IMG/VR virus record: IMGVR_UViG_3300032245_000624
DNA: 64,000 nucleotides
Strand: one strand, 5' to 3'
Origin: a virus
Lineage: Duplodnaviria > Heunggongvirae > Uroviricota > Caudoviricetes
Part shown: one piece after another, positions 18,632 to 63,328 of the stretch
How the letters are laid out: the number at the start of each line of letters is the position of its first letter
Numbering within the stretch: the stretch's first letter is position 1
Position numbers and translations under genes: made by a program
The notes under the pieces: generated by a model
Told to the model about the DNA's origin: nothing
Seen by the model: only the letters and a program-made list of their open reading frames with translations
Databases searched by the model: none

Positions 18632-19189
18632 TCAACGTCCGGAGTAGATTCGACGATTTACGACTTCCCAATCAATGATTTTCCAGTGATTTTTGAGATA
18701 AGATTGCTTGTTCCATTTGTAGTCTAGTGCCCAGGCATGCTCCCACCAATCAATCAACAATGCAATGTCTTTTTTGATTGCGTGATTCTTGATTGTTTTG
18801 ATATCCCCTGATCGAGACAGATAAGCCCAACCTGAGCCCTGGATCTTCATGGCTTCTTCTTCAAATGCTTGCTGAAAATTTATATACGAACCAAACTTGC
18901 GATTGATCAAGTCTAAACTGGCACCATGCGGTGTATTTCCGCCAGCTGGTTTTTGTAATTGTGTGAAGTATATGTTATGCAAAAAAGCACCTGCTTCGTT
19001 GAAGTCGGGGTCGCCTTCGCCTGAATTAAAACGCTCTACATAGGTTTTATAAAGATGTCCGTAGTGATAGTCTACAGCATCTTTACTCAAACTAGGGGAC
19101 AGATCATCACGAGCATAGGGCAGTTTGGCCTGCTCAAGATTGTTTTTTGCTTTGCTTTCTACTAGATCAACTAGCTGTCGGAATTCCAT
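18632..19189 (-). CDS. Fe/Mn superoxide dismutase
   Basis: Motifs AVDYHYGHLYKTYV and DWWEHAWALDYK, and a length of about 185 aa, match Fe/Mn SODs. Confidence 0.85.
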   Translation of the reverse strand: MEFRQLVDLVESKAKNNLEQAKLPYARDDLSPSLSKDAVDYHYGHLYKTYVERFNSGEGDPDFNEAGAFLHNIYFTQLQKPAGGNTPHGASLDLINRKFGSYINFQQAFEEEAMKIQGSGWAYLSRSGDIKTIKNHAIKKDIALLIDWWEHAWALDYKWNKQSYLKNHWKIIDWEVVNRRIYSGR

Positions 19190-30426: not shown

Positions 30427-30849
30427 TTACTTTGTTTTTTCATAGGTTTGATTGAAGATATCTATCTTAACCACACCATAGTCGCTAGGACCGTGTCGTA
30501 CAAGAACGTCTTCTCCACTGCGGTAGTATAGCGTTTCTCCCCAACTGGTGTCAACTGATCCATCGTGGTCAGCAATCTTGGCCAACTTCACAATCTTTTT
30601 AGGATAGCACACACCCTTGCCAGCATCGTCTTTGAGTTCACGAAATTTGTTAGGGGGGATTGGATATTGTTCGCCTTTGGGTCCTGTTAGGATATAAAAG
30701 CCTTTGCGGTAGTTGACCGGACCTTCTAGAGTGTTAATAGTACCGTCTTGTTGTGCTATTTCATAGTGTTCGGGATTGGGCTTCTTGTATGCTTTGAAAC
30801 CATTACGAAACCAATCGTCATCGATTGCCGCGATCTCGTTTATTCTCAT
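30427..30849 (-). CDS. Hypothetical protein (140 aa)
   Basis: ORF. Confidence 0.5.
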   Translation of the reverse strand: MRINEIAAIDDDWFRNGFKAYKKPNPEHYEIAQQDGTINTLEGPVNYRKGFYILTGPKGEQYPIPPNKFRELKDDAGKGVCYPKKIVKLAKIADHDGSVDTSWGETLYYRSGEDVLVRHGPSDYGVVKIDIFNQTYEKTK

Positions 30850-37677: not shown

Positions 37678-37708
37678 TTGCTTGCTCCTTTTGTTTAACT
37701 TAGCCTAT

Positions 37709-37737
37709 AGTATAGCAAAATGGGTAGATTTGGTCAA
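37709..37737 (-). promoter_or_regulatory. Phage promoter cassette copy A: TTGACC-17-TATACT followed by the conserved leader ATAGGCTAAGTTAAACAAAAGGAG
   Basis: Plus ggtcaa at 37732-37737 and agtata at 37709-37714. The cassette is repeated near-identically at 46.06, 50.82, 53.65 and 53.98 kb. Confidence 0.7.
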
Positions 37738-37751
37738 CCGTTTTTTCCATA

Positions 37752-44265: not shown

Positions 44266-44294
44266 TGCAAAAAGAAACCCGCCGAAGCGGGTTC
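44266..44294 (-). terminator. Rho-independent terminator ending the tmRNA precursor (CCCGCUUCGGCGGG plus UUUCUUUUUG)
   Basis: GC hairpin plus U-tract. Confidence 0.65.
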
Positions 44295-44547
44295 TGGTTG
44301 TTTAGGTTACAAGGTAAGTCCTACCCCGTGGTGTTCGGTTTTTAAGCGAACGCTGCCTCAGTTGCAGCCACTTTGCTTCCGCCGAAACGGAAACCTTTAG
44401 CGACTGTTACTTTGACACCAGTTTGTGTATTTGCTTTTGCATTTACGTTTTTTGCGTCTACGGCCGGGAATCCCCAACCCTACGGTTTCTGCCTTACCGT
44501 GCTGTCCACTTATCTACTCTTTGCCCTGTCGAAACCAGGTCACCCCC
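44270..44547 (-). ncRNA. ssrA: tmRNA coding piece (5' acceptor strand GGGGGUG, ACCUGGUUUCGACAGGG, tag reading frame)
   Basis: RNA GGGGGUGACCUGGUUUCGACAGGGC resembles the E. coli tmRNA 5' end GGGGCUGAUUCUGGAUUCGACGGG. The tag ORF starts GUAGAC-GCA and ends AAFA-UAA. Confidence 0.7.
44345..44455 (-). other. Putative tmRNA tag reading frame (resume codon GCA at 44455-44453, stop UAA at 44344-44342). It encodes AKNVNAKANTQTGVKVTVAKGFRFGGSKVAATEAAFA
   Basis: Frame chosen by alignment to the E. coli resume context UAGUC-GCA. It is unusually long (37 aa), so the end point is uncertain. Confidence 0.4.
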
Positions 44548-44628
44548 ATCATAAGAAGACATGTATACATATTACAGTTATTAGTGATACTATACAAATA
44601 AACTCATATGCTTTCATAATATCTCCTT

Positions 44629-44694
<66 letters not shown>

Positions 44695-44700
44695 ACTTAC

Positions 44701-44729
44701 AGTATATATTTATTGGCTATCGTCGTCAA
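44701..44729 (-). promoter_or_regulatory. Promoter TTGACG-17-TATACT for the tmRNA precursor
   Basis: Plus cgtcaa at 44724-44729 and agtata at 44701-44706. Confidence 0.5.
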
Positions 44730-44942
44730 GTCTAGGGAAGCCCAAAGTAAATTTTGTCAATGGATCCACCTTCTTCAACATCACAGCGCCTGACGTGGTT
44801 TTGCACACTTGCAAAAGATCACCTTCCTCAAACCGGATCTTCTCTAACGGAAGCTCTTCGTCTAAGATAATGTACTGTCCGTATTCAATGTCAATGATGT
44901 AGTCGAAGTGTTTCATGCAAGTATTTACACACTTGCAAAATT

Positions 44943-46026: not shown

Positions 46027-46058
46027 TGTTGAGCTCCTGTTTGTTTAACTTAGCCTAT

Positions 46059-46087
46059 AGTATAGCAAAATGGGCCATAATGGTCAA
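46059..46087 (-). promoter_or_regulatory. Phage promoter cassette copy B (TTGACC-17-TATACT plus conserved leader)
   Basis: Plus ggtcaa at 46082-46087 and agtata at 46059-46064. Confidence 0.7.
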
Positions 46088-46099
46088 CCGTTTTTTGTC

Positions 46100-50315: not shown

Positions 50316-50347
50316 TTCTAGCTCCTGTTTTTACTTACTAAGCCACT

Positions 50348-50376
50348 ATTATAGCGGTGTTGAACAAAACGGTCAA
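50348..50376 (-). promoter_or_regulatory. Promoter TTGACC-17-TATAAT for rIIA-rIIB, with AAAACGG/CCGTTTT arms directly flanking the -35
   Basis: Plus ggtcaa at 50371-50376 and attata at 50348-50353. Confidence 0.65.
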
Positions 50377-50382
50377 CCGTTT

Positions 50383-50784
50383 TTACACTTCCTGATTGTA
50401 TTCTTTACGCAACACTTCCAGGCATTGCTCTTTGGTACGTTTGGTCACAACAACCTTGCCGCCAAAGAAGCCCACGTACAGATTGCGGTGCTCCACAAAT
50501 TTTACTTCGCCATCAGCACCGGTATGCTTTTGACGCATAGGAGCCTTAACAACCACTTTTTTGGCCACTGTCTTTTTAACAGCAGGCTTGATGCCCAGCG
50601 GAGTCATACCTGCCAGTGCAGGCACTTGAGGTGTTGCAGGCTTTGCAGGAGGATTGTTGAAGCTGTGCTTCTTGTCGTATTTTGCAATCTGCTCTGGAGT
50701 GAAACCCCAAGTAGCAATCAGTCGCTTGGTTTCAGTGCCAGTGAGTGAATTCCAGTTGATGCAAGAGTCTGTCCAGTTTTTCAT
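50383..50784 (-). CDS. Hypothetical protein (133 aa)
   Basis: ORF after cassette copy C. Confidence 0.5.
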   Translation of the reverse strand: MKNWTDSCINWNSLTGTETKRLIATWGFTPEQIAKYDKKHSFNNPPAKPATPQVPALAGMTPLGIKPAVKKTVAKKVVVKAPMRQKHTGADGEVKFVEHRNLYVGFFGGKVVVTKRTKEQCLEVLRKEYNQEV

Positions 50785-50815
50785 TGCGAGCTCCTTTTTG
50801 TTTAACTTAGCCTAT

Positions 50816-50844
50816 AGTATAGCAAAAACGGGTATTTGGGTCAA
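50816..50844 (-). promoter_or_regulatory. Phage promoter cassette copy C
   Basis: Plus ggtcaa at 50839-50844 and agtata at 50816-50821, with conserved leader and RBS. Confidence 0.7.
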
Positions 50845-50861
50845 CCGTTTTTTTGTTGCTT

Positions 50862-51150
50862 TTATGCAACATTTTGAGCTTGCAAAAACTTTAATACTTT
50901 GGGTTGTATTTTTACAGCAACAGATTGGCTGTTATTTTGCACACGAAATTGCTCAATTTTTGCTTGCACTAGTGCTAGAGTAGTGCTTGGGTGGCAAGGA
51001 AGCTCCGAATAATACAGGGCTTTGTTTACAGGGCACGATTCAAAATTATGGGCACTTATGCGAATAGCAACGGGCGCATTTGAATAGGGAGTTGTTTTAA
51101 TACTAACATTTGCAAAGAGGCGATTGCTTGCTTTTGTAGTAAAATGCACG
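50862..51150 (-). CDS. Hypothetical protein (about 96 aa), probably starting at GTG 51150 rather than the listed ATG 51188, which lies inside the promoter
   Basis: The listed start overlaps the -10 of cassette F. GGAGC lies 5 nt upstream of the GTG. Confidence 0.4.
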
Positions 51151-51178
51151 TTGAGCTCCTTTTTGTTATTGAGCTCAT

Positions 51179-51207
51179 AGTATAGCAAAACGGGTGTTTT
51201 CGGTCAA
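51179..51207 (-). promoter_or_regulatory. Phage promoter cassette copy F (divergent leader)
   Basis: Plus ggtcaa at 51202-51207 and agtata at 51179-51184. Confidence 0.6.
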
Positions 51208-51210
51208 CCG

Positions 51211-51456
51211 TTAGAGATACCCGCGGTCGAAATTTGCGTGGATAGCATACCACTGGAAAAATATGGGTTCATATTCTGCCCAATTGCATACCGCCCATTC
51301 TTCTTCGCGTTCTACTTCCCACGGCCTGAGGCTGTTGCTCAGCAGGGCCATCACGAGCTTTTTGTTGTGCCGTGTGGCCTGGCCCTTGGCCGAGCTCTCC
51401 TTGCCATACATGCCAATCAATTGGCCTGATCCTTTTTTATAAACTACAAATCTCAT
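51211..51456 (-). CDS. Hypothetical protein (81 aa)
   Basis: ORF. Confidence 0.45.
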   Translation of the reverse strand: MRFVVYKKGSGQLIGMYGKESSAKGQATRHNKKLVMALLSNSLRPWEVEREEEWAVCNWAEYEPIFFQWYAIHANFDRGYL

Positions 51457-53334: not shown

Positions 53335-53615
53335 TATGCAGACTCCAACATGTTAGCAGGCACCTTCCACAGACCCTGCTGAGTGGCCACTGTGACATAC
53401 TTGATAGCAACCTTGCTCACGGTACCAGTCATTGTCACACCACGCTTGGTGCTGTGGAACTTGACCGCATCACCTTTGGTGAACGCACGGATCTTGGTTG
53501 CACGAAGCTGGGCACGAGCATAGTTCACGGCATCGCTGATGCTATTCAGTTGCTCGTTGGTAAAGTTGCTGAACATGATTGAAGTGTTAACTTCTTGAAT
53601 GGTTGCGTATGACAT
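53334..53615 (-). CDS. Hypothetical protein (93 aa)
   Basis: ORF after cassette copy D. Confidence 0.5.
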   Translation of the reverse strand: MSYATIQEVNTSIMFSNFTNEQLNSISDAVNYARAQLRATKIRAFTKGDAVKFHSTKRGVTMTGTVSKVAIKYVTVATQQGLWKVPANMLESA

Positions 53616-53645
53616 GATGTGCTCCTTTTGTTTAACTTAGCCTAT

Positions 53646-53674
53646 AGTATAGCAAAACGGGAATTTCTGGTCAA
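53646..53674 (-). promoter_or_regulatory. Phage promoter cassette copy D
   Basis: Plus ggtcaa at 53669-53674 and agtata at 53646-53651. Confidence 0.7.
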
Positions 53675-53680
53675 CCGTTT

Positions 53681-53947
53681 TTATTCGGAAAATTCGTACA
53701 TGAATTGGACCGTGCTAGGATCCAACTTGATCAGATCACGGGCGGCGCCAGTCAGCGCACGATAGCGAGCTTGTACTTGACTACGAGGCAATTCACCATC
53801 ACAGCTCAAGTTCTCTGGGCTGAGTGCGGCATCAATGCTCTGTGCCACACGTTTGCGACCCTGGGCAGTTTTAACTTCAAACTGCTCGCCCTTGAAGATT
53901 GCGTTCCATTTGTTCTGTTGTTCAATGTATGCTTGAAGTGCTTTCAT
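53681..53947 (-). CDS. Hypothetical protein (88 aa)
   Basis: ORF after cassette copy E. Confidence 0.5.
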   Translation of the reverse strand: MKALQAYIEQQNKWNAIFKGEQFEVKTAQGRKRVAQSIDAALSPENLSCDGELPRSQVQARYRALTGAARDLIKLDPSTVQFMYEFSE

Positions 53948-53977
53948 TGCTGGCTCCTTTTGTTTAACTTAGCCTCT

Positions 53978-54006
53978 AGTATAGCAAAACGGGTAGATTT
54001 GGTCAA
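53978..54006 (-). promoter_or_regulatory. Phage promoter cassette copy E
   Basis: Plus ggtcaa at 54001-54006 and agtata at 53978-53983. Confidence 0.7.
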
Positions 54007-54032
54007 CCGTTTTGTTTGTTGCGAAAAACCCA

Positions 54033-54065
54033 CAAAAAACCCCTGTAAAAACAAGGGTTTAAAAG
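54033..54065 (-). terminator. Rho-independent terminator upstream of promoter E
   Basis: aaaaacccctgtaaaaacaagggttt hairpin plus U-tract. Confidence 0.55.
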
Positions 54066-54088: not shown

Positions 54089-55531
54089 CTATTTTTTAGA
54101 TCTGCCGGATTTCATGTTAGCACACCAGTGGTACATTTTTGCCCGTTCTCCACTGGCACGTTTGGCCTTGGCTCTGAGTGATGTTACGGATCCGTCACAG
54201 CTGGCGCCTGCACGGCTTACTCTGCCCGGACGACTCTTGCCTTTGACCTTGCCGTCATGGAAGTTTTCCCACACACGCTCTTCTTCACCGCGGTGCTTGT
54301 CCCAGAAGCCTTTGCCTGCATCTGTTTGATCCCAACTACGATGTATCTCATAGCCCAGTTTCTTAACAAAGTCGTACATGGTACGAGCAATGCCTTGCCC
54401 TTGGTACTTGTCATCCACACGCAGATCCTGTGGGTCTAGTTCTTTACCATCACCGATGTTGAATTCAACGTAGCCTAGTACTTTGTTACCCCAGTCGTTT
54501 AGTGCTTCAACCTTGAGCTTGTATGATTCTTTGCTTACTCGTATGTTCAGCCCTTCAAACTCAACCATCTTGGATTCTGCCAAGCCTCGTCCTAGTCTGC
54601 TTAGTTCGTATATAACTATGTCACCATTGTCGGCACGGAAGGCTCGATATCCCCAAGCACGAGCATAACGCTGTACCAGTCTGTCGTACAGTTTAGCACG
54701 GCTTTCTGGATTGAAGTGTTCAACATTGTCTGCGTCCATGTCCACTTGTTTGCTGGCCGAGAAACTTAGTCGTTGTGGTTTGTATTTTTTGATGTATTTT
54801 TGTATAGCATCTAGTACTGTAGCAAAAATACGCTGTGCATCGCCCTCGCCTGTGACTTCTTGACTGTTGTTTCTATGGAACTCAACTTGCGTGACTTCTT
54901 CGCCTTCGTCACCATACTCCTGATTAAACATGATGTTGAGGTATGTGCCGTCTGGTAATTTTGCGTTTACATCAACGTCACCGTAGTCTGATTTTTCCCA
55001 CTTGCCCTTGTAAGGGTTGTCAAAGGCTTCTGCTAGTTCTTCATCATCTAAAAATGTATCTGCAAATGATTTGCACAGATCACGTATGCTACCATTTTCA
55101 GTTTCCATGATGTTGAAGTCACGATGTTCTTCTTCTTGAGTAGGATCAATATAACCACAGTAGACTTTCTTTACGCCCACTTGGTCAATTAGTTCTGTAC
55201 AGTCAATACCAAAACGTTCGCTCATGTGTTCACTGCATGGACTACATGTTGTGATAATAATACTGCCCTCAGGTATATCGCCATGTGCCTCTTGGTACTT
55301 TTCAATAGCCACACGCTCGGCATGCTTGCGAGTGTCTGTGGCATCATCAAATGTGTTTAGTCCTGCTATAATGCGATTGTCAGGGTCTACCACTGCCGCG
55401 GCCACCATGCCATAAAGTCCTTCACGAGGATCTTTCATGCCTTGCACAACCATGTGACACAACCGAACTAGAATTCGATCTAGTTTTTTATAGTTGTGTA
55501 TCTCTGTGTTGCTGATGTCGCTGTAGCGCAT
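54089..55531 (-). CDS. Fusion protein: N-terminal cytidine/dCMP-deaminase-like zinc domain and C-terminal GNAT acetyltransferase-like domain
   Basis: HAERVAIEKY...TTCSPCSEHM (H-A-E ... PCxxC). C-terminal DKYQGQGIARTMYDFVKKLGY (GNAT motif A). Confidence 0.65.
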   Translation of the reverse strand: MRYSDISNTEIHNYKKLDRILVRLCHMVVQGMKDPREGLYGMVAAAVVDPDNRIIAGLNTFDDATDTRKHAERVAIEKYQEAHGDIPEGSIIITTCSPCSEHMSERFGIDCTELIDQVGVKKVYCGYIDPTQEEEHRDFNIMETENGSIRDLCKSFADTFLDDEELAEAFDNPYKGKWEKSDYGDVDVNAKLPDGTYLNIMFNQEYGDEGEEVTQVEFHRNNSQEVTGEGDAQRIFATVLDAIQKYIKKYKPQRLSFSASKQVDMDADNVEHFNPESRAKLYDRLVQRYARAWGYRAFRADNGDIVIYELSRLGRGLAESKMVEFEGLNIRVSKESYKLKVEALNDWGNKVLGYVEFNIGDGKELDPQDLRVDDKYQGQGIARTMYDFVKKLGYEIHRSWDQTDAGKGFWDKHRGEEERVWENFHDGKVKGKSRPGRVSRAGASCDGSVTSLRAKAKRASGERAKMYHWCANMKSGRSKK

Positions 55532-55532
55532 A

Positions 55533-57458
55533 TTAGTGGAACATTAAAAACTGTCTGCTCACGTCCAAGCGACTTGCGCCTAGATCGCCGTGGCCTGCAG
55601 GGAACACTACCACGTTCCACTTGGGCTTAGGACCTTCTGGAATACGCAACATCTGATCATAAGTGATAATAGTGTCTGGATCAATCTTGTATGCAGAAGC
55701 CAACTTTTGCTTGAACTGATTCCAGTCGTCTTCGCTCTTGACCTGTGTGCGACCTTTTTCATCTTTTACATACTTGCCTTTGGCATCTGTAACAAACAAT
55801 TCACGGAACATGTCTTTAGGCAATGTAACTGCATCTTTAACATGCTTGCCAGCACCACGTTGGAATTCAACTTTTTTGACTTCGCGGTTCTGAGAACCAC
55901 TGGAGAACTGTCCAACTACATTAGGCGGAGCACCTGCATCGGCAGCAAGGTCACCCATCTTGGTATAGAAGTAGAACTTGGCGCCTGGGTTGTTGCGAGC
56001 AACATTCATGGCTAGGTCATAATAGTCCTTGCTGAAGAAATCGCCTGCATCGTGAATACGAACTAGTAGTTTAATGCCTGCTTTGTCTGTGCGTTTTTGT
56101 GCTGCCTTGACCTCACGATCAAACATTGCCATATAGCCTTCTGGATCATTGACCAAGAAGTTCAGTGCCTGTGCCGCGCTCATTGAGCTGGCAGGGAACA
56201 TACGATATCCGCCCTTGCGAGCATAACAGAATATTTGGCATTCGCCTGCGCCCGGGCAGGTCTTGATTTCCACAAAGTCGCCTGTTTCTTCATCCACCAC
56301 AATGCCTGAAAGTGCTGGTAGCGTTAAATCGTACGTCATCGCACCTTCTTCTTTGCTCTTGGCCATTTTAGCGTTGGTGCCAAGAATTTGACTAGGGCGA
56401 GTTGTGATCTGTCTTGCTAGGTCATCCAGGTCCCACTTGTTGTTTGGGTCGTCGCTTTGTATGATTGCCTTGACGTTACTACCATGGATAATAGGCTTGA
56501 ATTTGTCTGATTTGGTCTTTGTGTCTGTTTGGATACGGTCAACATAGCTGTGTAGTTCGTCACGGCTCCACTTCTGTTGTGGTGCATCAAGTTTTAATGC
56601 TTCATCAACTTCTAGGCTTTCATTGGGCACACAGTTACGTACCTGTCCGCCATTCTTGCCCTTTTTAGTGCCTTCTGCGTGTTTGCCTGGCCAGCACTTG
56701 GTATAACCGTTGCTGTCCTTTTGTCCTTTTTTGATTTCATTGAGATTGCCGTGTGATTGGCACATGCCACAATCCGGGCAAGTCATTTCCATCTCAATGC
56801 TTTTGTTGTGTTTTTTCTTGCCAGCACAATGTGCCTTTTGTGAGAATCCTTTTGGATGTGAGCAGTTGATACTTTTCTTGTACTTCTGACTCCACTCTTC
56901 TGCTATTGGCTCGTCATCCACTGTGCCAATATAGTGATGGTCATGTACTTTGTAACCCTTGCGGCGATAGTGTGCAATGGCTTGGTTAATGGCTGCTTCA
57001 CGATTAGAAACGTTTTGTGTGATACGAATTGATTTCTGAATAGTTTCTTTGCGCTTGCTGACCATTGGGTGGTTTGGATCTGTTACTGTCACACCAATGC
57101 GGTGTGTAACCGGCCCCACAGACTCGTCGACACCAACTCCAAATGCTTCTGGTGGGTTTTCCTTTAGCATACGTTCCACTTGGTTAACCCATCCACTAAC
57201 ATCGCTGGAGCCAATTTCTTCTACATCGCCAACCCAGTCAGCAACATCATCAATTGCGGCCATAACTGCTTCTGGACCATACTTGAGTAGGTCATGACGC
57301 TGGCCCATGATGCGACGAGTAATAGCACTGGCTACTGGACTGGGTTCTCCAAATCCTTCAGCAACAGGATCTTTGCTTCCAGACTGTTCAATATCTAGAG
57401 GCTGGACTGCAAATCCGCCTAGCGTCTTGCCTTCTTTAATTAGTTCGGTGTATCTCAT
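55533..57458 (-). CDS. Large hypothetical protein (641 aa) with Cys/His clusters
   Basis: Long ORF with no family recognised by eye. Confidence 0.55.
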   Translation of the reverse strand: MRYTELIKEGKTLGGFAVQPLDIEQSGSKDPVAEGFGEPSPVASAITRRIMGQRHDLLKYGPEAVMAAIDDVADWVGDVEEIGSSDVSGWVNQVERMLKENPPEAFGVGVDESVGPVTHRIGVTVTDPNHPMVSKRKETIQKSIRITQNVSNREAAINQAIAHYRRKGYKVHDHHYIGTVDDEPIAEEWSQKYKKSINCSHPKGFSQKAHCAGKKKHNKSIEMEMTCPDCGMCQSHGNLNEIKKGQKDSNGYTKCWPGKHAEGTKKGKNGGQVRNCVPNESLEVDEALKLDAPQQKWSRDELHSYVDRIQTDTKTKSDKFKPIIHGSNVKAIIQSDDPNNKWDLDDLARQITTRPSQILGTNAKMAKSKEEGAMTYDLTLPALSGIVVDEETGDFVEIKTCPGAGECQIFCYARKGGYRMFPASSMSAAQALNFLVNDPEGYMAMFDREVKAAQKRTDKAGIKLLVRIHDAGDFFSKDYYDLAMNVARNNPGAKFYFYTKMGDLAADAGAPPNVVGQFSSGSQNREVKKVEFQRGAGKHVKDAVTLPKDMFRELFVTDAKGKYVKDEKGRTQVKSEDDWNQFKQKLASAYKIDPDTIITYDQMLRIPEGPKPKWNVVVFPAGHGDLGASRLDVSRQFLMFH

Positions 57459-57835
57459 TCTATAATCTCCGGGTATTCTTTTCCATATAGTTTCATTAGG
57501 TAACCTGCTTCTGCATCTGCTTCACGTTCTAGTTTACTGCCAGGAGGACTATGTCCATGAATGCGACCTTGGGTGCCTTGCTTGACGTGCTTTAGTTCAT
57601 GCGCCACTGTGCGTAGTATATCAATTAGATTTCTATTGCCAGTGTACACATACATGGTATTCTCTTGATGATTGAACCAACCAGTATGGTGCATGTCTTC
57701 TGTTTCTTTTTCAGAACTAAAAGTGATTGTGGGCAACGGACCACGAATGTTTTCTTTTTGGTATACCCATTCAATGAAATGAGCTATCCTGTCTTCGTGG
57801 TTGTTGGGGGCATTGATAATTTCTTCTATTAACAT
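57455..57835 (-). CDS. Hypothetical protein with an HExxH motif (possible small metallopeptidase)
   Basis: TVAHELKHVKQG. Confidence 0.4.
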   Translation of the reverse strand: MLIEEIINAPNNHEDRIAHFIEWVYQKENIRGPLPTITFSSEKETEDMHHTGWFNHQENTMYVYTGNRNLIDILRTVAHELKHVKQGTQGRIHGHSPPGSKLEREADAEAGYLMKLYGKEYPEIIE

Positions 57836-59124
57836 TATTGCCCCTGTTGATTTTGTGAAAGCTGTTTTAGTGCATCTCTAAGACCATCTATTACCACATT
57901 CAAACTGTCTTCATCTGCTTGGTATTTAATGCCAATGCCGCCTTTGGATCTCCAGCTCACAATGTTGGTTCCACGATCGTCAATCAGGATGTTTGGAGTA
58001 CCGTCAGGCTGAGTGGCGTGTTTTTCTTTTCGTGACGTAATGATAATGTCGCGTGGTTGAATACTGAGATTCTGTTGCAACCAGATACGTTTGTGTTCTT
58101 CGCTGTTTGCATGATCACCACGCAGTGGACTTGAGCAGATATTGTAGTGACCAAATAATTTTGTCACTGTGCTTACCAGTGCATCTGTGGTGGGAAACTT
58201 TGGCAAGCGAGAAAAGAAATCTGTTCCTATCATACGATTCAATGTAGGATCAGTCTTGGCAGAAGGAATATTTCTATAATTGTAGCGGCCACTACCATCT
58301 GGTGGAACACCTGCTAGCTTGGCGTACTCTGAGAAGAAGTCGCACAGCACACCGTCCATGTCTAAAAAGATTTCTGGTTTGCTTTTGTTTTCTGGAGGTG
58401 ATGGTAAGCCAGGAGTGTCATCATCTTCGTCTATGCTGAGGTCTCTGTCAGTTAACCCTGTTAGGTGTATACGAATCTTGTCAAGATAACCTTGGGCACG
58501 TAGCAGTTTAAATGCTAGATTCTCAGGACTAAATTCGCCTGCTGTTTCTAGCCCTGTTTTACGCATGGCCTTGACATCGCTCCACACAGCAGTTGCACGA
58601 TCAAGATCTTGACTTATGATTGCTTGATCAATTCTATGCTTCATGTTACTGTACTTTTCACGCACATCCATGTCATCAATGTCTGCACGTTGGCGCTTGG
58701 GCTTGCTTACCCAACGGTCTTCTTTGACACTGTAGATACCCATGCTGTGATGTGCTTGCTCAACGTCCTGGACATAAAGCTCAACATCAAAACCACGCAC
58801 CTTGATATCATGTGTGTCATTGTACTGATACTTTTTGGCATCAAACAGCTGACGTAATTCATCCTCGTGTGCATCAGGAATCATAACCACAAGATGTAGA
58901 TCAATGTCACTGCTGGGTGTATAAGTGTAAGCGGCATTGCTACCCGAAATAGTAATATCCACTAGATCGTAGTTGTCAATGCCCAGAAATTCTTTGAAGT
59001 GATCTGCAATACGCAACAATGCGCGGCGCACTTCTGTTTGCAGACGCTCGTTTTTCCAAAGAGCTGGGTTTAGCTCATCGTGAAACTGTACCGCCTGACT
59101 TAGTTCAAATTCGTTTAATCGCAT
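57835..59124 (-). CDS. Fusion protein: Pol-beta-like nucleotidyltransferase domain plus HAD-family 5'(3')-deoxyribonucleotidase/phosphatase domain
   Basis: GSNAAYTYTPSSDIDLHLVV (NTase G-S...D-x-D) and IFLDMDGVLCDF (HAD DxDGxL). Confidence 0.6.
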   Translation of the reverse strand: MRLNEFELSQAVQFHDELNPALWKNERLQTEVRRALLRIADHFKEFLGIDNYDLVDITISGSNAAYTYTPSSDIDLHLVVMIPDAHEDELRQLFDAKKYQYNDTHDIKVRGFDVELYVQDVEQAHHSMGIYSVKEDRWVSKPKRQRADIDDMDVREKYSNMKHRIDQAIISQDLDRATAVWSDVKAMRKTGLETAGEFSPENLAFKLLRAQGYLDKIRIHLTGLTDRDLSIDEDDDTPGLPSPPENKSKPEIFLDMDGVLCDFFSEYAKLAGVPPDGSGRYNYRNIPSAKTDPTLNRMIGTDFFSRLPKFPTTDALVSTVTKLFGHYNICSSPLRGDHANSEEHKRIWLQQNLSIQPRDIIITSRKEKHATQPDGTPNILIDDRGTNIVSWRSKGGIGIKYQADEDSLNVVIDGLRDALKQLSQNQQGQ

Positions 59125-59224
59125 GTCTGCATCCTGATCAAGTATTTATTGCAAGGTGCAAATGCGGGTACAGTTAGAGATTGCCGGGCTATGAACCCGG
59201 CAATTCCATTGATATCAATGCTGA

Positions 59225-59815
59225 TCAGCGTTTGTCAACCACTGAATCTGCTAGACCGTACGCCACTGCTTCTTGTGCGCTCATGAAAAAGTCGCGTTCC
59301 ATGTCTGGTGCAATTTCATCAAAGGTACGACCCACACTGTTGTGTTTAACATAAACATCTGTTAGATTGCGCTTCATTTTAAGGATTTCACGCACCTGGA
59401 TTTCCATGTCTGTGGCTTGGCCACCAGCACCGCCTGATGGTTGGTGAATCATATGTCGTGCATTGGGTAATATTAGCCGTTTACCCGGTGCACCTGCTTG
59501 TGCTAGTAAACTGCCCATGGAGCAGGCTTGACCCATAACAATGGTACTTACATCAGGTTTAATAAACTGCATGGTATCGTAGATTGCCATTCCAGCGGTA
59601 ACAACACCGCCAGGAGAATTGATGTAGAACAGGATGTCTGCATCTGGGTTTTCGCTTTCTAAAAATAGCAGTTGCGCTACCACAAGGCTGGCACTATGCT
59701 CGTTGACGTCTGTGTCTAAAAGTACAATACGATCTTTGAGCAAGCGGCTATAGATATCATAGGCTCGCTCGCCGTGTGAAGTTTTTTCTAGTACTGTGGG
59801 TACAAAATTTGGCAT
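59225..59815 (-). CDS. clpP: ATP-dependent Clp protease proteolytic subunit
   Basis: Full-length similarity. [10 protein letters not shown] (Ser nucleophile) and MIHQP (His). Confidence 0.9.
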
Positions 59816-59841: not shown

Positions 59842-59870
59842 ATTATAGACAACTATAGAGCATTTGTCAA
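59842..59870 (-). promoter_or_regulatory. Consensus sigma70 promoter TTGACA-17-TATAAT upstream of clpP
   Basis: Plus tgtcaa at 59865-59870 and attata at 59842-59847. Confidence 0.65.
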
Positions 59871-60430: not shown

Positions 60431-61183
60431 TTATTGCACAGTTGTTTGCCCGATTACAGCACCGGGCTTTTGAAGGGCGGCATCCCGCCGAGCCTTGTAT
60501 TCTTCGTTATCAACGGGCATCAGTGTAATACCTTCTACCTTGCTAACGGGTTTTACTTCTGTAACGCTCTTGCCCTTGTTCATTTCACGATCAAGTTCAT
60601 TCATGCCTGCATCAATAGCATCTTCTTTGAGTTGACGCTCACGTTGCAGTTTGTCTTTGAGCATACGATTAGCATCGCCCATTGGGTAGCGCACCAGCAC
60701 AAAGGTACGATAGCCACGATTTTCGGCTAGCACACGGGTATCTTCCAAGTGCATGCCTGTAACAGCGGTGTCAACAATCACCTTTTTAACGATCAACTGT
60801 GTGCGGTCTGTGCCCACAGTGCCTGCATCATCCTTGCGGTTTTGCTTGACTAGTGCGTTGATAACACCGTTAATCTTGTCCGCTAACTGTACTTGTGCAT
60901 CCAACAGTGCCTTTTGACGGCTCATTGCTAGATCGCTGGACACAGCGGTTCCTGCAATATACACATAGTCTTCGGTGCTAGCAGGTGCCTTGATGTACCA
61001 AGCGGGTAGATCAATTGTTGCGGCATTTTCCACACGACCTTGTGCGGCTAAAGTTTGATCTTTAGTAACAGCAGGCGTTGGGCTGGGCAGTGGTGCCTCG
61101 GCCTTTTTCTGTGACATGCTAGAACAGCCGGTTAAGGCAGTTAAGATACTTGCAGTGATAATCAGACGTTTCATTTTTTTCAT
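60431..61183 (-). CDS. Lipoprotein (likely start MKKMKRLIITASILTALTGCSS)
   Basis: Lipobox LTGC. The listed longer ORF (to 61408) has no signal peptide at its N-terminus. Confidence 0.5.
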   Translation of the reverse strand: MKKMKRLIITASILTALTGCSSMSQKKAEAPLPSPTPAVTKDQTLAAQGRVENAATIDLPAWYIKAPASTEDYVYIAGTAVSSDLAMSRQKALLDAQVQLADKINGVINALVKQNRKDDAGTVGTDRTQLIVKKVIVDTAVTGMHLEDTRVLAENRGYRTFVLVRYPMGDANRMLKDKLQRERQLKEDAIDAGMNELDREMNKGKSVTEVKPVSKVEGITLMPVDNEEYKARRDAALQKPGAVIGQTTVQ

Positions 61184-61223
61184 CCTTTTAAAGGTTACGA
61201 CAGTTGTTATAGTAGCAGTTAAT

Positions 61224-61787
61224 TTAGAATTTGTCAACCACTTGCCACTCTTGATTTCGAACCAAACAAGCGATACCTTGCCATTGGTACAATTGAGTGC
61301 CTTGTGCATCCGTTTCAATAAACCAGCGACATGTGGTATTTTTATAACGGAATGGCTCCGGGTGCTGTGGGTCAATTTGGACTTCACTTTCTTTAATGAT
61401 GTCACCAATTTTCACAGCGGCTCGAACTTTTGGAATGGGTTGATCAGTACACACCATGCTTTGGTCCATGGTAATTTTGGATCCACCCACTGAATCTAGT
61501 AAGTGTGCTTTACCGGCATCCATTGCGCCTGCACAGATCTGTTCTTCACCTAGGCCTCTATCACCTTCATTTACCGCTTCTCCGGTATGCCATTGGTTTT
61601 TGATCTGAGCACGGAATGTTACCACGCACCTTAGTTGATTTCTGGGTAGAGGAACAACACTGCGCTCTACGTCAACAATGCGTTGAATTTTAACAGGCAG
61701 TTGTTTGATTGCCGCACTGCGGCTATAACATTCTGCATGAGCAGAACCAACAGCAAACAGTGCCAGTAAGAGAGCAGTTTTTTTCAT
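61224..61787 (-). CDS. Periplasmic or secreted protein (187 aa) with a signal peptide
   Basis: MKKTALLLALFAVGSAHA. Confidence 0.55.
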   Translation of the reverse strand: MKKTALLLALFAVGSAHAECYSRSAAIKQLPVKIQRIVDVERSVVPLPRNQLRCVVTFRAQIKNQWHTGEAVNEGDRGLGEEQICAGAMDAGKAHLLDSVGGSKITMDQSMVCTDQPIPKVRAAVKIGDIIKESEVQIDPQHPEPFRYKNTTCRWFIETDAQGTQLYQWQGIACLVRNQEWQVVDKF

Positions 61788-62104
61788 CGACAGTACTTGA
61801 GTAGATAATCAATTTTGCCACGGATTATCGCAGTGTTCACACCACGATAGCTTTTGTAACGTTCTGCATAGGTACCATCTGCCATGGTAAGCAAGGTACC
61901 ACTAACACCTGTCATCGCCAGTGCATTGGTCCAGCGGTCCTGTCTGTCAGGCAGTTGCATTTGTAAAAATTCAACCTGTTCCCACTTGCGGTTGCAATCC
62001 AACTTGTAGTTGTCTAGCTCTTCCACTGTGAGATGATTGGTTGTACCCCAGGCCATTGCTAGACCTGGAACTATCAACGATAGACTTGCAATGTAGGATC
62101 GCAT
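61784..62104 (-). CDS. Exported protein (start at the internal Met, MRSYIASLSLIVPGLAMA)
   Basis: Signal peptide begins at residue 7 of the listed ORF 61784..62122. Confidence 0.45.
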   Translation of the reverse strand: MRSYIASLSLIVPGLAMAWGTTNHLTVEELDNYKLDCNRKWEQVEFLQMQLPDRQDRWTNALAMTGVSGTLLTMADGTYAERYKSYRGVNTAIIRGKIDYLLKYCR

Positions 62105-62334
62105 TGTGACCTCAATGTCCAAATTAGATTTTTAGCACGAGCTTGATATTCACGATCGCCGTCGTTGCCGGGCAATCGCATTTGTCTTTCTAAGTATGCA
62201 ATCTGCAATCTTGCATTGCCGCAGTCAGGGCGCATACGTGAAAGATCCTGCATGGGCAAACGTGATTCTGTTGCACAGCCTACTAGTGTAACCAACAGGC
62301 CTGCGAGAGCAAAGACTTTCATGTCAGTCCTCAA
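62074..62334 (-). CDS. Small lipoprotein (86 aa)
   Basis: Lipobox LVGCAT. Confidence 0.5.
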   Translation of the reverse strand: MRTDMKVFALAGLLVTLVGCATESRLPMQDLSRMRPDCGNARLQIAYLERQMRLPGNDGDREYQARAKNLIWTLRSQCDPTLQVYR

Positions 62335-62488
62335 GTTTGTTAGGATGTTTGGGTTTACGCACGTAGGTGCCTCGTTTGTTCTTTACCGTTTTTGGACGAA
62401 ATGGTGAATTTTCGGCAAACAGCACAAAGTGAGCACGAGTACGAGCACGTGGTACTTCAAATCGAATTGTAGTGTTCTTATTCATCAT
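62324..62488 (-). CDS. Small highly basic protein (about 54 aa, MMNKNTTIRFEV...KNKRGTYVRKPKHPNK), probably leaderless
   Basis: The listed start at 62524 lies inside the -35 of the promoter. The first ATG after the -10 is at about 62488, about 7 nt downstream. Confidence 0.4.
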   Translation of the reverse strand: MMNKNTTIRFEVPRARTRAHFVLFAENSPFRPKTVKNKRGTYVRKPKHPNKLED

Positions 62489-62495
62489 AGTCCAA

Positions 62496-62524
62496 ATTAT
62501 ACATGTAAATGGATTATTGGTCAA
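62496..62524 (-). promoter_or_regulatory. Promoter TTGACC-17-TATAAT
   Basis: Plus ggtcaa at 62519-62524 and attata at 62496-62501. Confidence 0.6.
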
Positions 62525-62715
62525 CCGTGTTTGTTTACAGTGACGTTGCTTTTAAACAAACCACCAATCACAACCACTGCCGCCCAGGTTTCCCAAGTGT
62601 AAGGAATAGCCAAGGTTGGGAACAGAGTGTTCATGGACCAAATGGTCAACAACGGGCCTAAAACAATCAGCGCCAATACAAATACCGCAACAGAAACAAT
62701 CTTAATCATTACCAA
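62521..62715 (-). CDS. Small membrane protein (64 aa)
   Basis: Two hydrophobic helices. Confidence 0.45.
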   Translation of the reverse strand: MVMIKIVSVAVFVLALIVLGPLLTIWSMNTLFPTLAIPYTWETWAAVVVIGGLFKSNVTVNKHG

Positions 62716-62912
62716 CTCCTATAAGTTCTTGGGTGGCCGTACAAATTAGGGTTCACCCCATTGTTGTTTTTGTACGACTGGTTGAAACAAACTTCACCGC
62801 CTTGGTCAGCATAGCAACTGCGAGTGCCTGCTAGATCCTGGCTCACTAGAGCCGGGCGTTGACTGGCGCACCCAGTGAGTGCAACCAGCACGAGAACAAT
62901 TAAACTTTTCAT
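62709..62912 (-). CDS. Small lipoprotein (internal start MKSLIVLVLVALTGCAS)
   Basis: Lipobox. The listed longer ORF to 63047 uses a GTG start and overlaps the upstream gene. Confidence 0.45.
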   Translation of the reverse strand: MKSLIVLVLVALTGCASQRPALVSQDLAGTRSCYADQGGEVCFNQSYKNNNGVNPNLYGHPRTYRSW

Positions 62913-63328
62913 TACCAGCGCCTCAATCCACCACCATGATAGGTAGGATGGCTGGGTTGCTGATAAATTATCACTGGCGGAGGTGGTGCATACACTATCT
63001 GTGGCACGGCTTGATAGCAACCTGTACAACAAACAGTATTCCCCCACTGGTCAATGTAACACCCACGTGGTTGGGGCTGTACATACACCTCACGACGTTG
63101 TTCATATGTGTAGCCAAAAGGACGACGAGCTTCTGCTTGACGCTCACCCATCTCATATCCGATCACTGCACCAATTGCAGTGGTTGCGGCTTTACCGTTA
63201 CCTTGTCCAAACTGATTACCAATTGCGGCACCAATCACCGCACCCATCACTGGTTCTATCTCCACAGCCTGAGCAACAGGCGCGGTTAATGCGACCAGCA
63301 TTGACAGGGCTAACAGTTTACGTTTCAT
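62912..63328 (-). CDS. Glycine-zipper (GxxxG array) exported protein
   Basis: Signal peptide plus GAVIGAAIGNQFGQGNG...IGAVIGY. RBS AAAGGAG. Confidence 0.55.
   Translation of the reverse strand: MKRKLLALSMLVALTAPVAQAVEIEPVMGAVIGAAIGNQFGQGNGKAATTAIGAVIGYEMGERQAEARRPFGYTYEQRREVYVQPQPRGCYIDQWGNTVCCTGCYQAVPQIVYAPPPPVIIYQQPSHPTYHGGGLRRW

Follow-up and report, generated by a model that had tools for sequence, protein, structure and literature searches.

Leaders resembling the T4 capsid-targeting sequence on shuffled enzyme modules in a late-type operon of a predicted T4-like phage

Introduction

In phage T4, a few small internal proteins (IPs) and the enzyme Alt carry a capsid-targeting sequence (CTS), MKTYQEFIAE (PMC8442874), in which positions 4 and 7 determine targeting and positions 8 and 10 determine processing (PMC9026906). 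The protease gp21 cuts at IAE-10 and, in Alt, at ITE-6 and LTE-619 (PMC9026906, PMC5694885). The genes of the internal proteins are highly diverse between related phages and have only the CTS in common (PMC3012670; PMC9026906). In the giant phages phiKZ and SPN3US, many head-internal proteins are targeted by cleavable propeptides, and a protease related to gp21 makes the cut after x-E (PMC5694885). A separate line of work has described 'polyvalent proteins' in phages and conjugative elements, with a zincin metallopeptidase as hub (Iyer, Burroughs, Anand, de Souza, Aravind 2017; PMC5512222). In this study, we examined an operon of four adjacent minus-strand open reading frames (ORFs), 59124-54089, in 64,000 nucleotides (nt) of DNA from a Caudoviricetes virus (IMG/VR record IMGVR_UViG_3300032245_000624; this whole stretch is the window below). 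With moderate confidence, we propose from sequence comparison that the four products are capsid-targeted, protease-processed and injected effector enzymes, an enlarged analogue of the T4 IPs and Alt that is built like polyvalent proteins. CTS packaging and polyvalent proteins are known separately; linking both across a large environmental family of enzyme cassettes appears to be new.

The four ORFs have the boundaries given in a preliminary description of this DNA and read, in the direction of transcription, ORF4 (57835-59124, 429 aa; a Pol-beta nucleotidyltransferase (NTase) and a HAD 5'(3')-nucleotidase), ORF3 (57455-57835, 126 aa; a detached HExxH zincin), ORF2 (55533-57458, 641 aa; a GP88-family protein with a Cys-rich insert) and ORF1 (54089-55531, 480 aa; a RibD-like deaminase, a GNAT-fold domain that we call Mid, a GNAT acetyltransferase and a basic tail). 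The genes follow one another closely in the same orientation: ORF4 and ORF3 overlap in TAATG, ORF3 and ORF2 in ATGA, and ORF2 and ORF1 are 1 nt apart. Homologue alignments indicate that the catalytic motifs are kept in every module. Three things were missing from the preliminary description: the proteins share a leader, the promoter is of late type, and the HExxH ORF is properly part of the NTase-HAD protein.

Results and discussion

Nearly all proteins of this family begin with a leader of consensus M-R/K-x-x-E-F/L/I-I/V-x-E, independent of which module follows. Examples are MRAQEFVTEA/FDQPY before Mid, MRANEFITEA/KLVDYEG before GNAT, MQSKEFLKGKSE/VFLDMDG before HAD and MRASEFVIE/NFADGKK before the basic tail (here and below a slash marks the boundary). 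The pattern ^Mxxx[DE][FLIVMY] opens 321 of 354 homologues (91%) and 82 of the 138 representatives at the 50% identity level, and none of the 86 plus-strand ORFs of the window. Because the Arg codon differs between leaders (CGC vs AGA), the leader is conserved as a peptide and not as DNA. When the 535 ATG starts of the window were ranked by a leader profile built without the window's own sequences, ORF2 (MRYTELIKEG) came first, ORF4 (MRLNEFELSQ) second and ORF1 (MRYSDISNTE) fourth.

The same leader singles out the packaged proteins of T4. A position-specific scoring matrix from 229 unique family N-termini was run against the 1,095 ATG-initiated ORF starts in T4 nt 1-135,000, and IPIII, IPII and IPI ranked 1, 2 and 4 of 1,095, with Alt at rank 11. 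Some family leaders have seven consecutive residues identical to T4, QEFIAEA. Within the operon, the ORF2 leader MRYTELIKE (57432-57458, minus strand) has equivalents of all four CTS positions 4, 7, 8 and 10 (Y, L, I, E), and the leaders of ORF1 and ORF4 fit the profile, imperfectly at the processing positions. The locus resembles the IPs and Alt in several ways: the N-terminal leader is about ten residues long and agrees at the key positions, there are [LI]xE sites of the processing type, the expression signal is late-type and the background is T4-like; like the T4 IP locus it is hypervariable, its members having the leader alone in common.

Two further proteins drew attention in these scans. 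The third-ranked start in T4 is that of gp61.1 (MKTFKEFIKE), a 54-aa hypothetical protein (gene 61.1, 18966-19130, minus strand, in NC_000866, our L011), which may be an unrecognised CTS-bearing protein. In the window, the third-ranked start is that of a 140-aa ORF at 30427-30849 (minus strand), which begins MRINEIAAIDDDWF and contains a motif of acidic and aromatic residues similar to the DDDELFG linkers seen in relatives; judged by its sequence, a further capsid-targeted protein may be encoded here, away from the operon.

Sites of the type at which the T4 leader is cut also lie between modules. The density of [LIV]-x-E is 0.057 per residue in the 14 residues before module cores and 0.0076 per residue within modules, a 7.5-fold enrichment, and a site is present at 206 of 279 junctions vs 9.6% of control windows (ahead of Mid in 66 of 67, GNAT in 33 of 34, NTase in 45 of 55, GP88 in 26 of 31 and deaminase in 20 of 23). 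Ahead of Mid the form [LIVM]-x-E-[AG] occurs in 66 of 67 cases. Across junctions the middle residue is free to vary and the flanking residues are fixed. In the operon itself, the linkers of ORF1 read L-A-E/A (residues 166-169) and L-A-E/S (317-320), ORF2 has I-K-E/G after its leader and V-D-E/A just ahead of the GP88 core, and ORF4 has I-D-E (231-233) at the junction ahead of HAD. Unlike in the T4 IPs, the putative sites thus lie between domains as well, as in a polyprotein. The ejection proteins of phiKZ and SPN3US (gp175/gp245 protease) are comparable in the type of targeting propeptide and in being cut after x-E, but they belong to another lineage, have S/A/G-x-E sites (A, S or G at -3, not L, I or V) and have no common leader.

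The modules behind the leader are extensively reshuffled. In a BLAST census with the modules of the window, 240 homologues fell into more than 50 architectures, in which the modules stand in any order: NTase alone in 55 homologues, NTase-HAD-zincin in 31, HAD-zincin in 15, NTase-GP88 in 7 and NTase-deaminase-Mid in more than 13, along with zincin-deaminase-GNAT and both Mid-GNAT and GNAT-Mid. The deaminase-Mid-GNAT-tail arrangement of ORF1 is found in only 4 of the 240. The zincin is the commonest fusion partner of HAD and NTase; other partners are an ADP-ribosyltransferase (ADPrib_exo_Tox), GH19 lysozyme with LysM, NUDIX, a second Pol-beta NTase family (Polbeta), Zeta_toxin and AAA_33 kinases, a cytidylyltransferase-like domain (CTP_transf_like), GGACT and several DUFs. 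Mid turned up in 1,068 clusters in an exhaustive search of the representative library at the 50% identity level; the proteins that contain it are 183-1,759 aa long and have it at any position, in up to four copies. Since the fusion partners vary, we regard the modules as shuffled effector cassettes and not as a pathway fixed by deaminase-GNAT or NTase-HAD pairs. The preliminary description had taken these fusions to suggest a nucleotide-pool or nucleic-acid modification or repair pathway; with the ORF1 arrangement so rare among so many others, a dedicated pathway is not supported.

The locus as a whole is hyperplastic, with a constant SprT-ClpP anchor followed by differing runs of leader-bearing genes in two relatives. 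In the 355-kb contig L002 the anchor is followed by an NTase-HAD-zincin gene and five large leader-bearing proteins, and in L010 by NTase-GP88 and other leader-bearing proteins; the leader is also found on a GH19 lysozyme of L008, a more distant relative. The proteins combine at least two domains of disparate biochemistry within a shared domain network, and their domain shuffling and repertoire, as read from sequence, are those of phage polyvalent proteins. The likeness extends to two or more unrelated catalytic domains per polypeptide (most polyvalent proteins having 2-3 domains) and to GNAT (neighbouring ADP-ribosyltransferase), Pol-beta NTase, lysozyme and NUDIX partners. Polyvalent proteins are also predicted to be delivered with the DNA, as the products of this operon may be. 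There are also differences. The text of the paper on polyvalent proteins (PMC5512222) does not contain the term 'targeting sequence', and a CTS-type leader and [LIV]xE-delimited modules are undescribed there; the Pol-beta NTases that it covers come mostly from conjugative elements of firmicutes, and deaminase, NT5C/HAD, GP88 and DUF6934 domains are not prominent. Screening with NCBIfam and PADLOC found no known defence or anti-defence family above threshold in the locus.

A separate observation concerns the large leader-bearing products downstream of the NTase gene in relatives. In L002 (11665-21668) and L010 (13264-15003), an acidic motif, [DE]3-5-(L/M)-F-[GSA], repeats between modules of about 100-150 aa. 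This linker (DDDELFG) was sought in the window's cluster and is absent.

The transcription signals set the four ORFs apart from their surroundings. A T4-type late-promoter-like motif, AATAAATA, lies at 59143-59150 (minus strand), 26 nt upstream of the ORF4 start. The T4 late-promoter consensus is TATAAATA, of which the first T is poorly conserved in T4-like phages (PMC1524935). In the window the motif NATAAATA occurs eight times on the coding (minus) strand vs zero on the other, and five of the eight sites lie 13-41 nt upstream of gene starts, those of four virion or tail genes (1.6-19 kb) and of ORF4 (P~6e-6). Relatives have (A/G)TAAATA at the position of the ORF4 motif. A 9-bp GC-rich hairpin without a T-run (59181-59203) separates the operon's late motif from the upstream ClpP gene, and an intrinsic terminator read from the sequence, CCCTTGT-TTTT-ACAGGGG followed by TTTTTTG (54033-54057, minus strand), comes after ORF1, past which a sigma70-type promoter lies at 54006-53978. 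Bounded by a late motif, an upstream hairpin and a terminator, the four ORFs appear to make up a single unit of late transcription.

Taken with the leader and the junction sites, this layout suggests a sequence of events by analogy with T4. The operon would be transcribed late from the NATAAATA promoter, the N-terminal leader would dock each protein on the scaffolding core of the prohead, and the prohead protease would then remove the leader. The same protease would probably also cut the inter-module [LIV]-x-E sites, to which the zincin may contribute. The enzyme modules would be kept inside the DNA-filled head and injected with the genome, and could act before phage gene expression, either to modify host proteins or nucleotide-type molecules or to counter defence. 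We infer packaging, cleavage, injection and the targets of the enzymes from these parallels.

Several observations weigh against this proposal. The ORF1 leader, MRYSDISNTE, is without I or L at -3 and that of ORF4 offers only LNE-5, and homologues in cultured T4-like phages (S-CRM01 g125, nt-1 ORF252) have no obvious leader. The junction residues may in part be conserved module N-termini and the homologues are not independent, so that the observations behind the enrichment are not fully independent either. No prohead protease or scaffold gene turned up in the window, and the adjoining 10 kb or so at each end yielded neither these nor head genes; no head, portal or MuF gene lies next to the operon, a further departure from polyvalent proteins. 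The operon also adjoins a sigma70-driven ClpP gene in a region otherwise rich in early-type promoters. Unlike the small basic T4 IPs, the products are multi-domain enzymes (up to 1,759 aa in relatives) that are large and, except for the basic tail and GP88, mainly acidic (pI 4.7-5.7); the four proteins have 126-641 aa and pI 5.4-8.1, and their basic parts are solely the 48-aa tail (pI 11.4) and GP88 (pI 8.7). Size is no bar in T4, which packages the large enzyme Alt (PMC5694885) and IPIII-beta-galactosidase fusions (PMC9026906); Alt shows that CTS packaging of such cargo is possible. The present family also differs from the T4 IPs in comprising more than 1,000 clusters of shuffled architectures; a literature search found no usable virion proteomics for its cultured homologues (KVP40-type vibriophages).

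Three other explanations were considered, and each is less consistent with the leader, its T4 result and the late motif than capsid targeting is. The enzymes could be non-packaged intracellular effectors or anti-defence proteins, with the N-terminal and junction motifs being recombination scars or handles or a translation-initiation preference. Recombination at gene boundaries clearly occurs, given the ATGA and TAATG gene overlaps and the variable content of the locus, early promoters are abundant nearby, and the leaderless homologues in cultured phages would fit. However, a scar would not be expected to be kept as a peptide despite synonymous codon differences, to persist across 50%-identity representatives and to pick out T4 CTS proteins from 1,095 starts, nor is a late-type motif common to the operon and virion genes expected of it, and we regard this explanation as unlikely. 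Alternatively, the leader and [LIV]xE sites might be signals for the adjacent phage ClpP or for a zincin, leading to cytoplasmic proteolytic activation or turnover. In the window as in L002 and L010, the locus is immediately preceded by ClpP and an SprT-like zincin, and the frequency of zincin fusions to HAD and NTase points the same way. Yet the ClpP gene (59225-59815; Pfam E 5.9e-79) has its own perfect TTGACA-17-TATAAT promoter (59842-59870) and is parted from the operon by the hairpin, L008 has the modules with no neighbouring ClpP, and the motif fits the specificity of gp21. ClpP, moreover, requires an unfoldase and degrades its substrates processively, not by cutting at defined sites. 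We consider this explanation highly improbable.

The remaining alternative is closest to the preliminary description, namely auxiliary nucleotide metabolism in the cytoplasm, by remodelling of the deoxynucleoside triphosphate pool or by nucleotide or DNA modification during replication, as with T4 cd and the NT5C enzymes of cyanophages and pelagiphages. The family names point in this direction (dCMP_cyt_deam_1, phrog_174, phrog_2643), as do the lone HAD module, which in HTVC008M and in phages of Rhizobium and Xanthomonas is annotated as a deoxyribonucleotidase, and the deaminase, whose closest matches, RibD and guanine deaminases, have free nucleotides or bases as substrates. The RibD-like deaminase, the NT5C-type nucleotidase and the Pol-beta NTase do plausibly act on nucleotides or nucleotide-like molecules. 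Nevertheless, the partners are inconstant, with ADP-ribosyltransferases, lysozyme, NUDIX, kinases and zincins joining in, the operon promoter is late-type and neither early nor middle, the shared CTS-like leader is given no role, and this explanation does not account for the zincin, the basic tail or the pair of GNAT-fold domains. T4 cd and phage NT5C-type deoxyribonucleotidases belong to the same superfamilies (CDA zinc deaminases; HAD NT5C) but stand alone, T4 cd in an early-gene region, whereas here the enzymes are fused, leader-tagged and behind a late-type promoter, and the deaminase has RibD-like spacing. A purely metabolic role therefore appears quite unlikely to us. A connection to the nearby transfer-messenger RNA (tmRNA), for which RNA 3'-end healing and tailing had been suggested, can be set aside: a permuted tmRNA of the two-piece type is indeed encoded at 44273-44743 (minus strand; ARAGORN and Rfam RF04321, 112 bits), but it lies 9.4 kb downstream, past the terminator, at least six sigma70-type promoters and rIIA/rIIB.

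Beyond this operon, capsid targeting of enzyme cassettes could be a widespread and hitherto unrecognised delivery system in T4-like and huge environmental phages, in which leader and protease sites serve as universal 'connectors' by which cassettes of any kind enter the head as a polyprotein, are cut into modules and are injected; we offer this wider view tentatively, as a possibility that may well prove wrong. If it is right, the T4 CTS paradigm, so far known from Alt and a handful of small internal proteins, would cover multi-domain enzymes, in more than 1,000 clusters, of uncultured phages both T4-like and huge, and the delivery signal missing from the polyvalent-protein concept would be supplied. 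The deaminase, nucleotidase, NTase, GNAT, ADP-ribosyltransferase, NUDIX, kinase, lysozyme and GP88 cassettes would then form a rapidly reshuffled arsenal acting at DNA entry, for example against nucleotide-based immunity. This may have practical application, as leader plus [LIV]xE junctions would give a sequence rule for predicting injected effectors from metagenomes and suggest a natural portable tag for loading cargo into T4-type capsids. The annotation of 'auxiliary metabolic' fusion genes would change accordingly, some of which may be first-strike effectors and not metabolic enzymes of the replication phase.

Domain composition of the four proteins

The preliminary description had identified the domains from short motifs, and had left room for these being chance matches; domain searches showed this to be the case for none of the assignments in the four ORFs. 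Its deaminase-GNAT fusion in ORF1 was borne out by Pfam matches above cut-off and by motifs conserved in homologues. The leader MRYSDISNTE and the RibD-like zinc deaminase occupy residues 1-165 (55037-55531, minus strand). Residues 38-126 match Pfam dCMP_cyt_deam_1 (E 2.1e-12, 47.3 bits vs a cut-off of 25) and can be aligned with the deaminase domain of RibD (2hxv, E 3.7e-5), while NCBIfam models for RibD and for anti-phage dCTP deaminase score far under their cut-offs and the PHROG label is 'dCMP deaminase' (phrog_174). H70-A-E72, P98-C99 and C111 are conserved in 38 homologues. The HAE motif noted earlier therefore stands, but PCSEH is not the ligand motif, the zinc ligands being C99 and C111 with the long spacing of RibD according to the 2hxv alignment. 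With the H(C)AE motif, two Cys zinc ligands and an above-threshold profile, ORF1 has the features of the CDA superfamily.

After the L-A-E/A junction comes Mid, a DUF6934-like domain (54584-55036, minus strand; residues 166-316). Its AlphaFold model (residues ~169-316; predicted local distance difference test, pLDDT, 81) has GNAT topology, with a weak sequence match to DUF6934. The best Foldseek match is the acetyl-CoA-binding regulatory domain of M. tuberculosis ICL2/Rv1916 (prob 1.0), followed by PatZ, AAC(6') and Naa50. In hhalign comparisons Mid had no sequence relationship to the GNAT, deaminase, NTase or zincin profiles. Mid may be a CoA-binding, non-catalytic GNAT copy.

The GNAT acetyltransferase proper follows the L-A-E/S junction (54242-54583, minus strand; residues 317-430). 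Taken alone its match (residues ~342-395) is borderline (Acetyltransf_1, 21.9 bits vs a cut-off of 20.7; Pfam Acetyltransf_7 also matches), with homologues scoring up to 1.8e-11. The acetyl-CoA loop (Y)QGQGIA is conserved in 68 homologues, so that both the pyrophosphate loop (beta4-alpha3; Q/R-x-x-G-x-G/A) and a profile match expected of a GNAT are present. ORF1 ends in the basic tail module (54089-54235, minus strand; residues 433-480), which recurs C-terminally in many architectures with the conserved pattern S-V..LR..AK..SGE...M.HW.ANMK.GR.K. A zinc knuckle was considered for this tail and rejected, its cysteines not being conserved.

Between the two fusions, a 641 aa Cys/His-rich protein and an HExxH protein had been reported, and these correspond to the GP88 protein with its Cys-rich insert and to the zincin. 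In ORF2 the leader is followed by a variable insert (56601-57431, minus strand; residues 10-286) that contains the Cys-rich mini-module WSQKYKKSINCSHPKGFSQKAHCAGKKK and ends V-D-E/A; it matches phrog_9737, is not in standalone GP88 proteins and has pieces common to other relatives. The GP88 module itself (55533-56600, minus strand; residues 287-641; Pfam GP88 E 1e-30) is 70-90% identical to 117 homologues, with invariant TCPGAGxCxxxCYARKGGY and HDAGDFFSK, and appears enzyme-like. Searches of the PDB with the ORF2 sequence and a GP88 profile gave no significant solved structure, and a literature search found no paper on PF17338/GP88 or DUF6934. As a minor point, the short basic Cys mini-module, WSQKYKKSINCSxPKGFSQxAHCAGxKK (56858-56938; residues 189-215), is found in relatives either directly after the leader (P0410, L002 17153) or internally (L008 13917).

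ORF4 was likewise confirmed as the NTase-HAD fusion of the preliminary description, the NTase by Foldseek of the model, the HAD by PHROG, and both by conserved motifs. Residues 1-232 (58429-59124, minus strand) comprise the leader MRLNEFE and a Pol-beta-type NTase with a helical domain. The NTase is under the Pfam threshold (NTP_transf_2, E 0.028) and matches phrog_36119 (E 6e-48); the model of these residues (pLDDT 89.7) retrieved solely Pol-beta NTases in Foldseek (CdnE 5e-5, AadA/ANT(9), ANT(4'), MNT, FAM46, DrrA, GlnE). SGSNAA...SDIDLH is invariant in 123 homologues, giving the G-S motif and DxD carboxylates alongside the alpha/beta fold. Against the PDB, the NTase profile search had a non-significant best hit (DrrA, E 0.59) and the ORF4 sequence search gave nothing significant. 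The HAD-superfamily NT5C-type 5'(3')-(deoxy)nucleotidase spans residues 245-429 (57835-58392, minus strand). It matches phrog_2643, '5'-3' deoxyribonucleotidase' (E 7.5e-20), and falls just under the cut-off for Pfam NT5C (E 4.2e-5, 23.9 vs 24.8 bits); LDMDGVL (motif I) and IDDR (motif IV), as in HAD/NT5C enzymes, are conserved in 47 homologues.

ORF3 (57455-57835, minus strand), whose start overlaps the ORF4 stop, is a zincin metallopeptidase with HELKH...E. It matches phrog_87 metallo-protease (E 4.7e-5) and, weakly, the family profiles, and its HExxH, downstream E and AD (HELKH...LEREAD) are conserved, as in zincins. In 31 relatives this zincin is the C-terminal domain of the NTase-HAD protein (555-580 aa), and 51 relatives have it as a C-terminal fusion to NTase-HAD, HAD or NTase. 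ORF4 and ORF3 are thus one gene split at 57835, with loss of the linker of about 45 residues present in fused relatives; the same split occurs in an independent Logan assembly (L001). The detached ORF3 has a leader-like N-terminus of its own, MLIEEII, which ranks 7 of the 535 starts in the window.

Phage lineage and neighbouring genes

A DNA-level search against 50,697 phage records found no relative of the window. The window encodes rIIA, rIIB, an ATP-dependent DNA ligase, glycosyltransferases, the permuted tmRNA, ClpP and an SprT-like protein, with giant virion and tail proteins at 1.6-19 kb. A 1,236-aa virion protein has its best matches in the T4-like cyanophages S-CAM3/S-CAM1 (~43% identity). 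Judged by this protein, the rII genes and the late-promoter motif, the phage is T4-like, and its closest cultured relatives by sequence are Kyanoviridae. The modules of the operon are also present in T4-like phages.

Beyond the window, the left flank of the same phage (L007 15280-18724; ENA contig) encodes MazG, an Hc1-like histone-like protein and a clamp loader, and the right flank a CHASE2-guanylate cyclase, Peptidase_S11 (D-Ala-D-Ala carboxypeptidase) and UvdE. The distant relative L008 encodes ClpB and DnaJ chaperones. Upstream of SprT/ClpP, genes predicted to encode lipoproteins and small secreted proteins cluster at 60431-63328 (minus strand), among them those of an LPP20-like protein with a lipobox and a Rick_17kDa_Anti-like glycine-zipper protein; the cluster is kept in L002 and L010. 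Finally, a repeat of 48-67 nt, with a sigma70 promoter (TTGACC-17-TATACT) and an AAGGAG ribosome-binding site, recurs in intergenic regions of the minus strand before small genes (37678-37745, 46028-46095, 50337-50384, 50785-50852, 51148-51215, 53615-53682, 53947-54014 and 62485-62532); this apparent early-gene promoter cassette is reminiscent of T4-type mobile regulatory cassettes.

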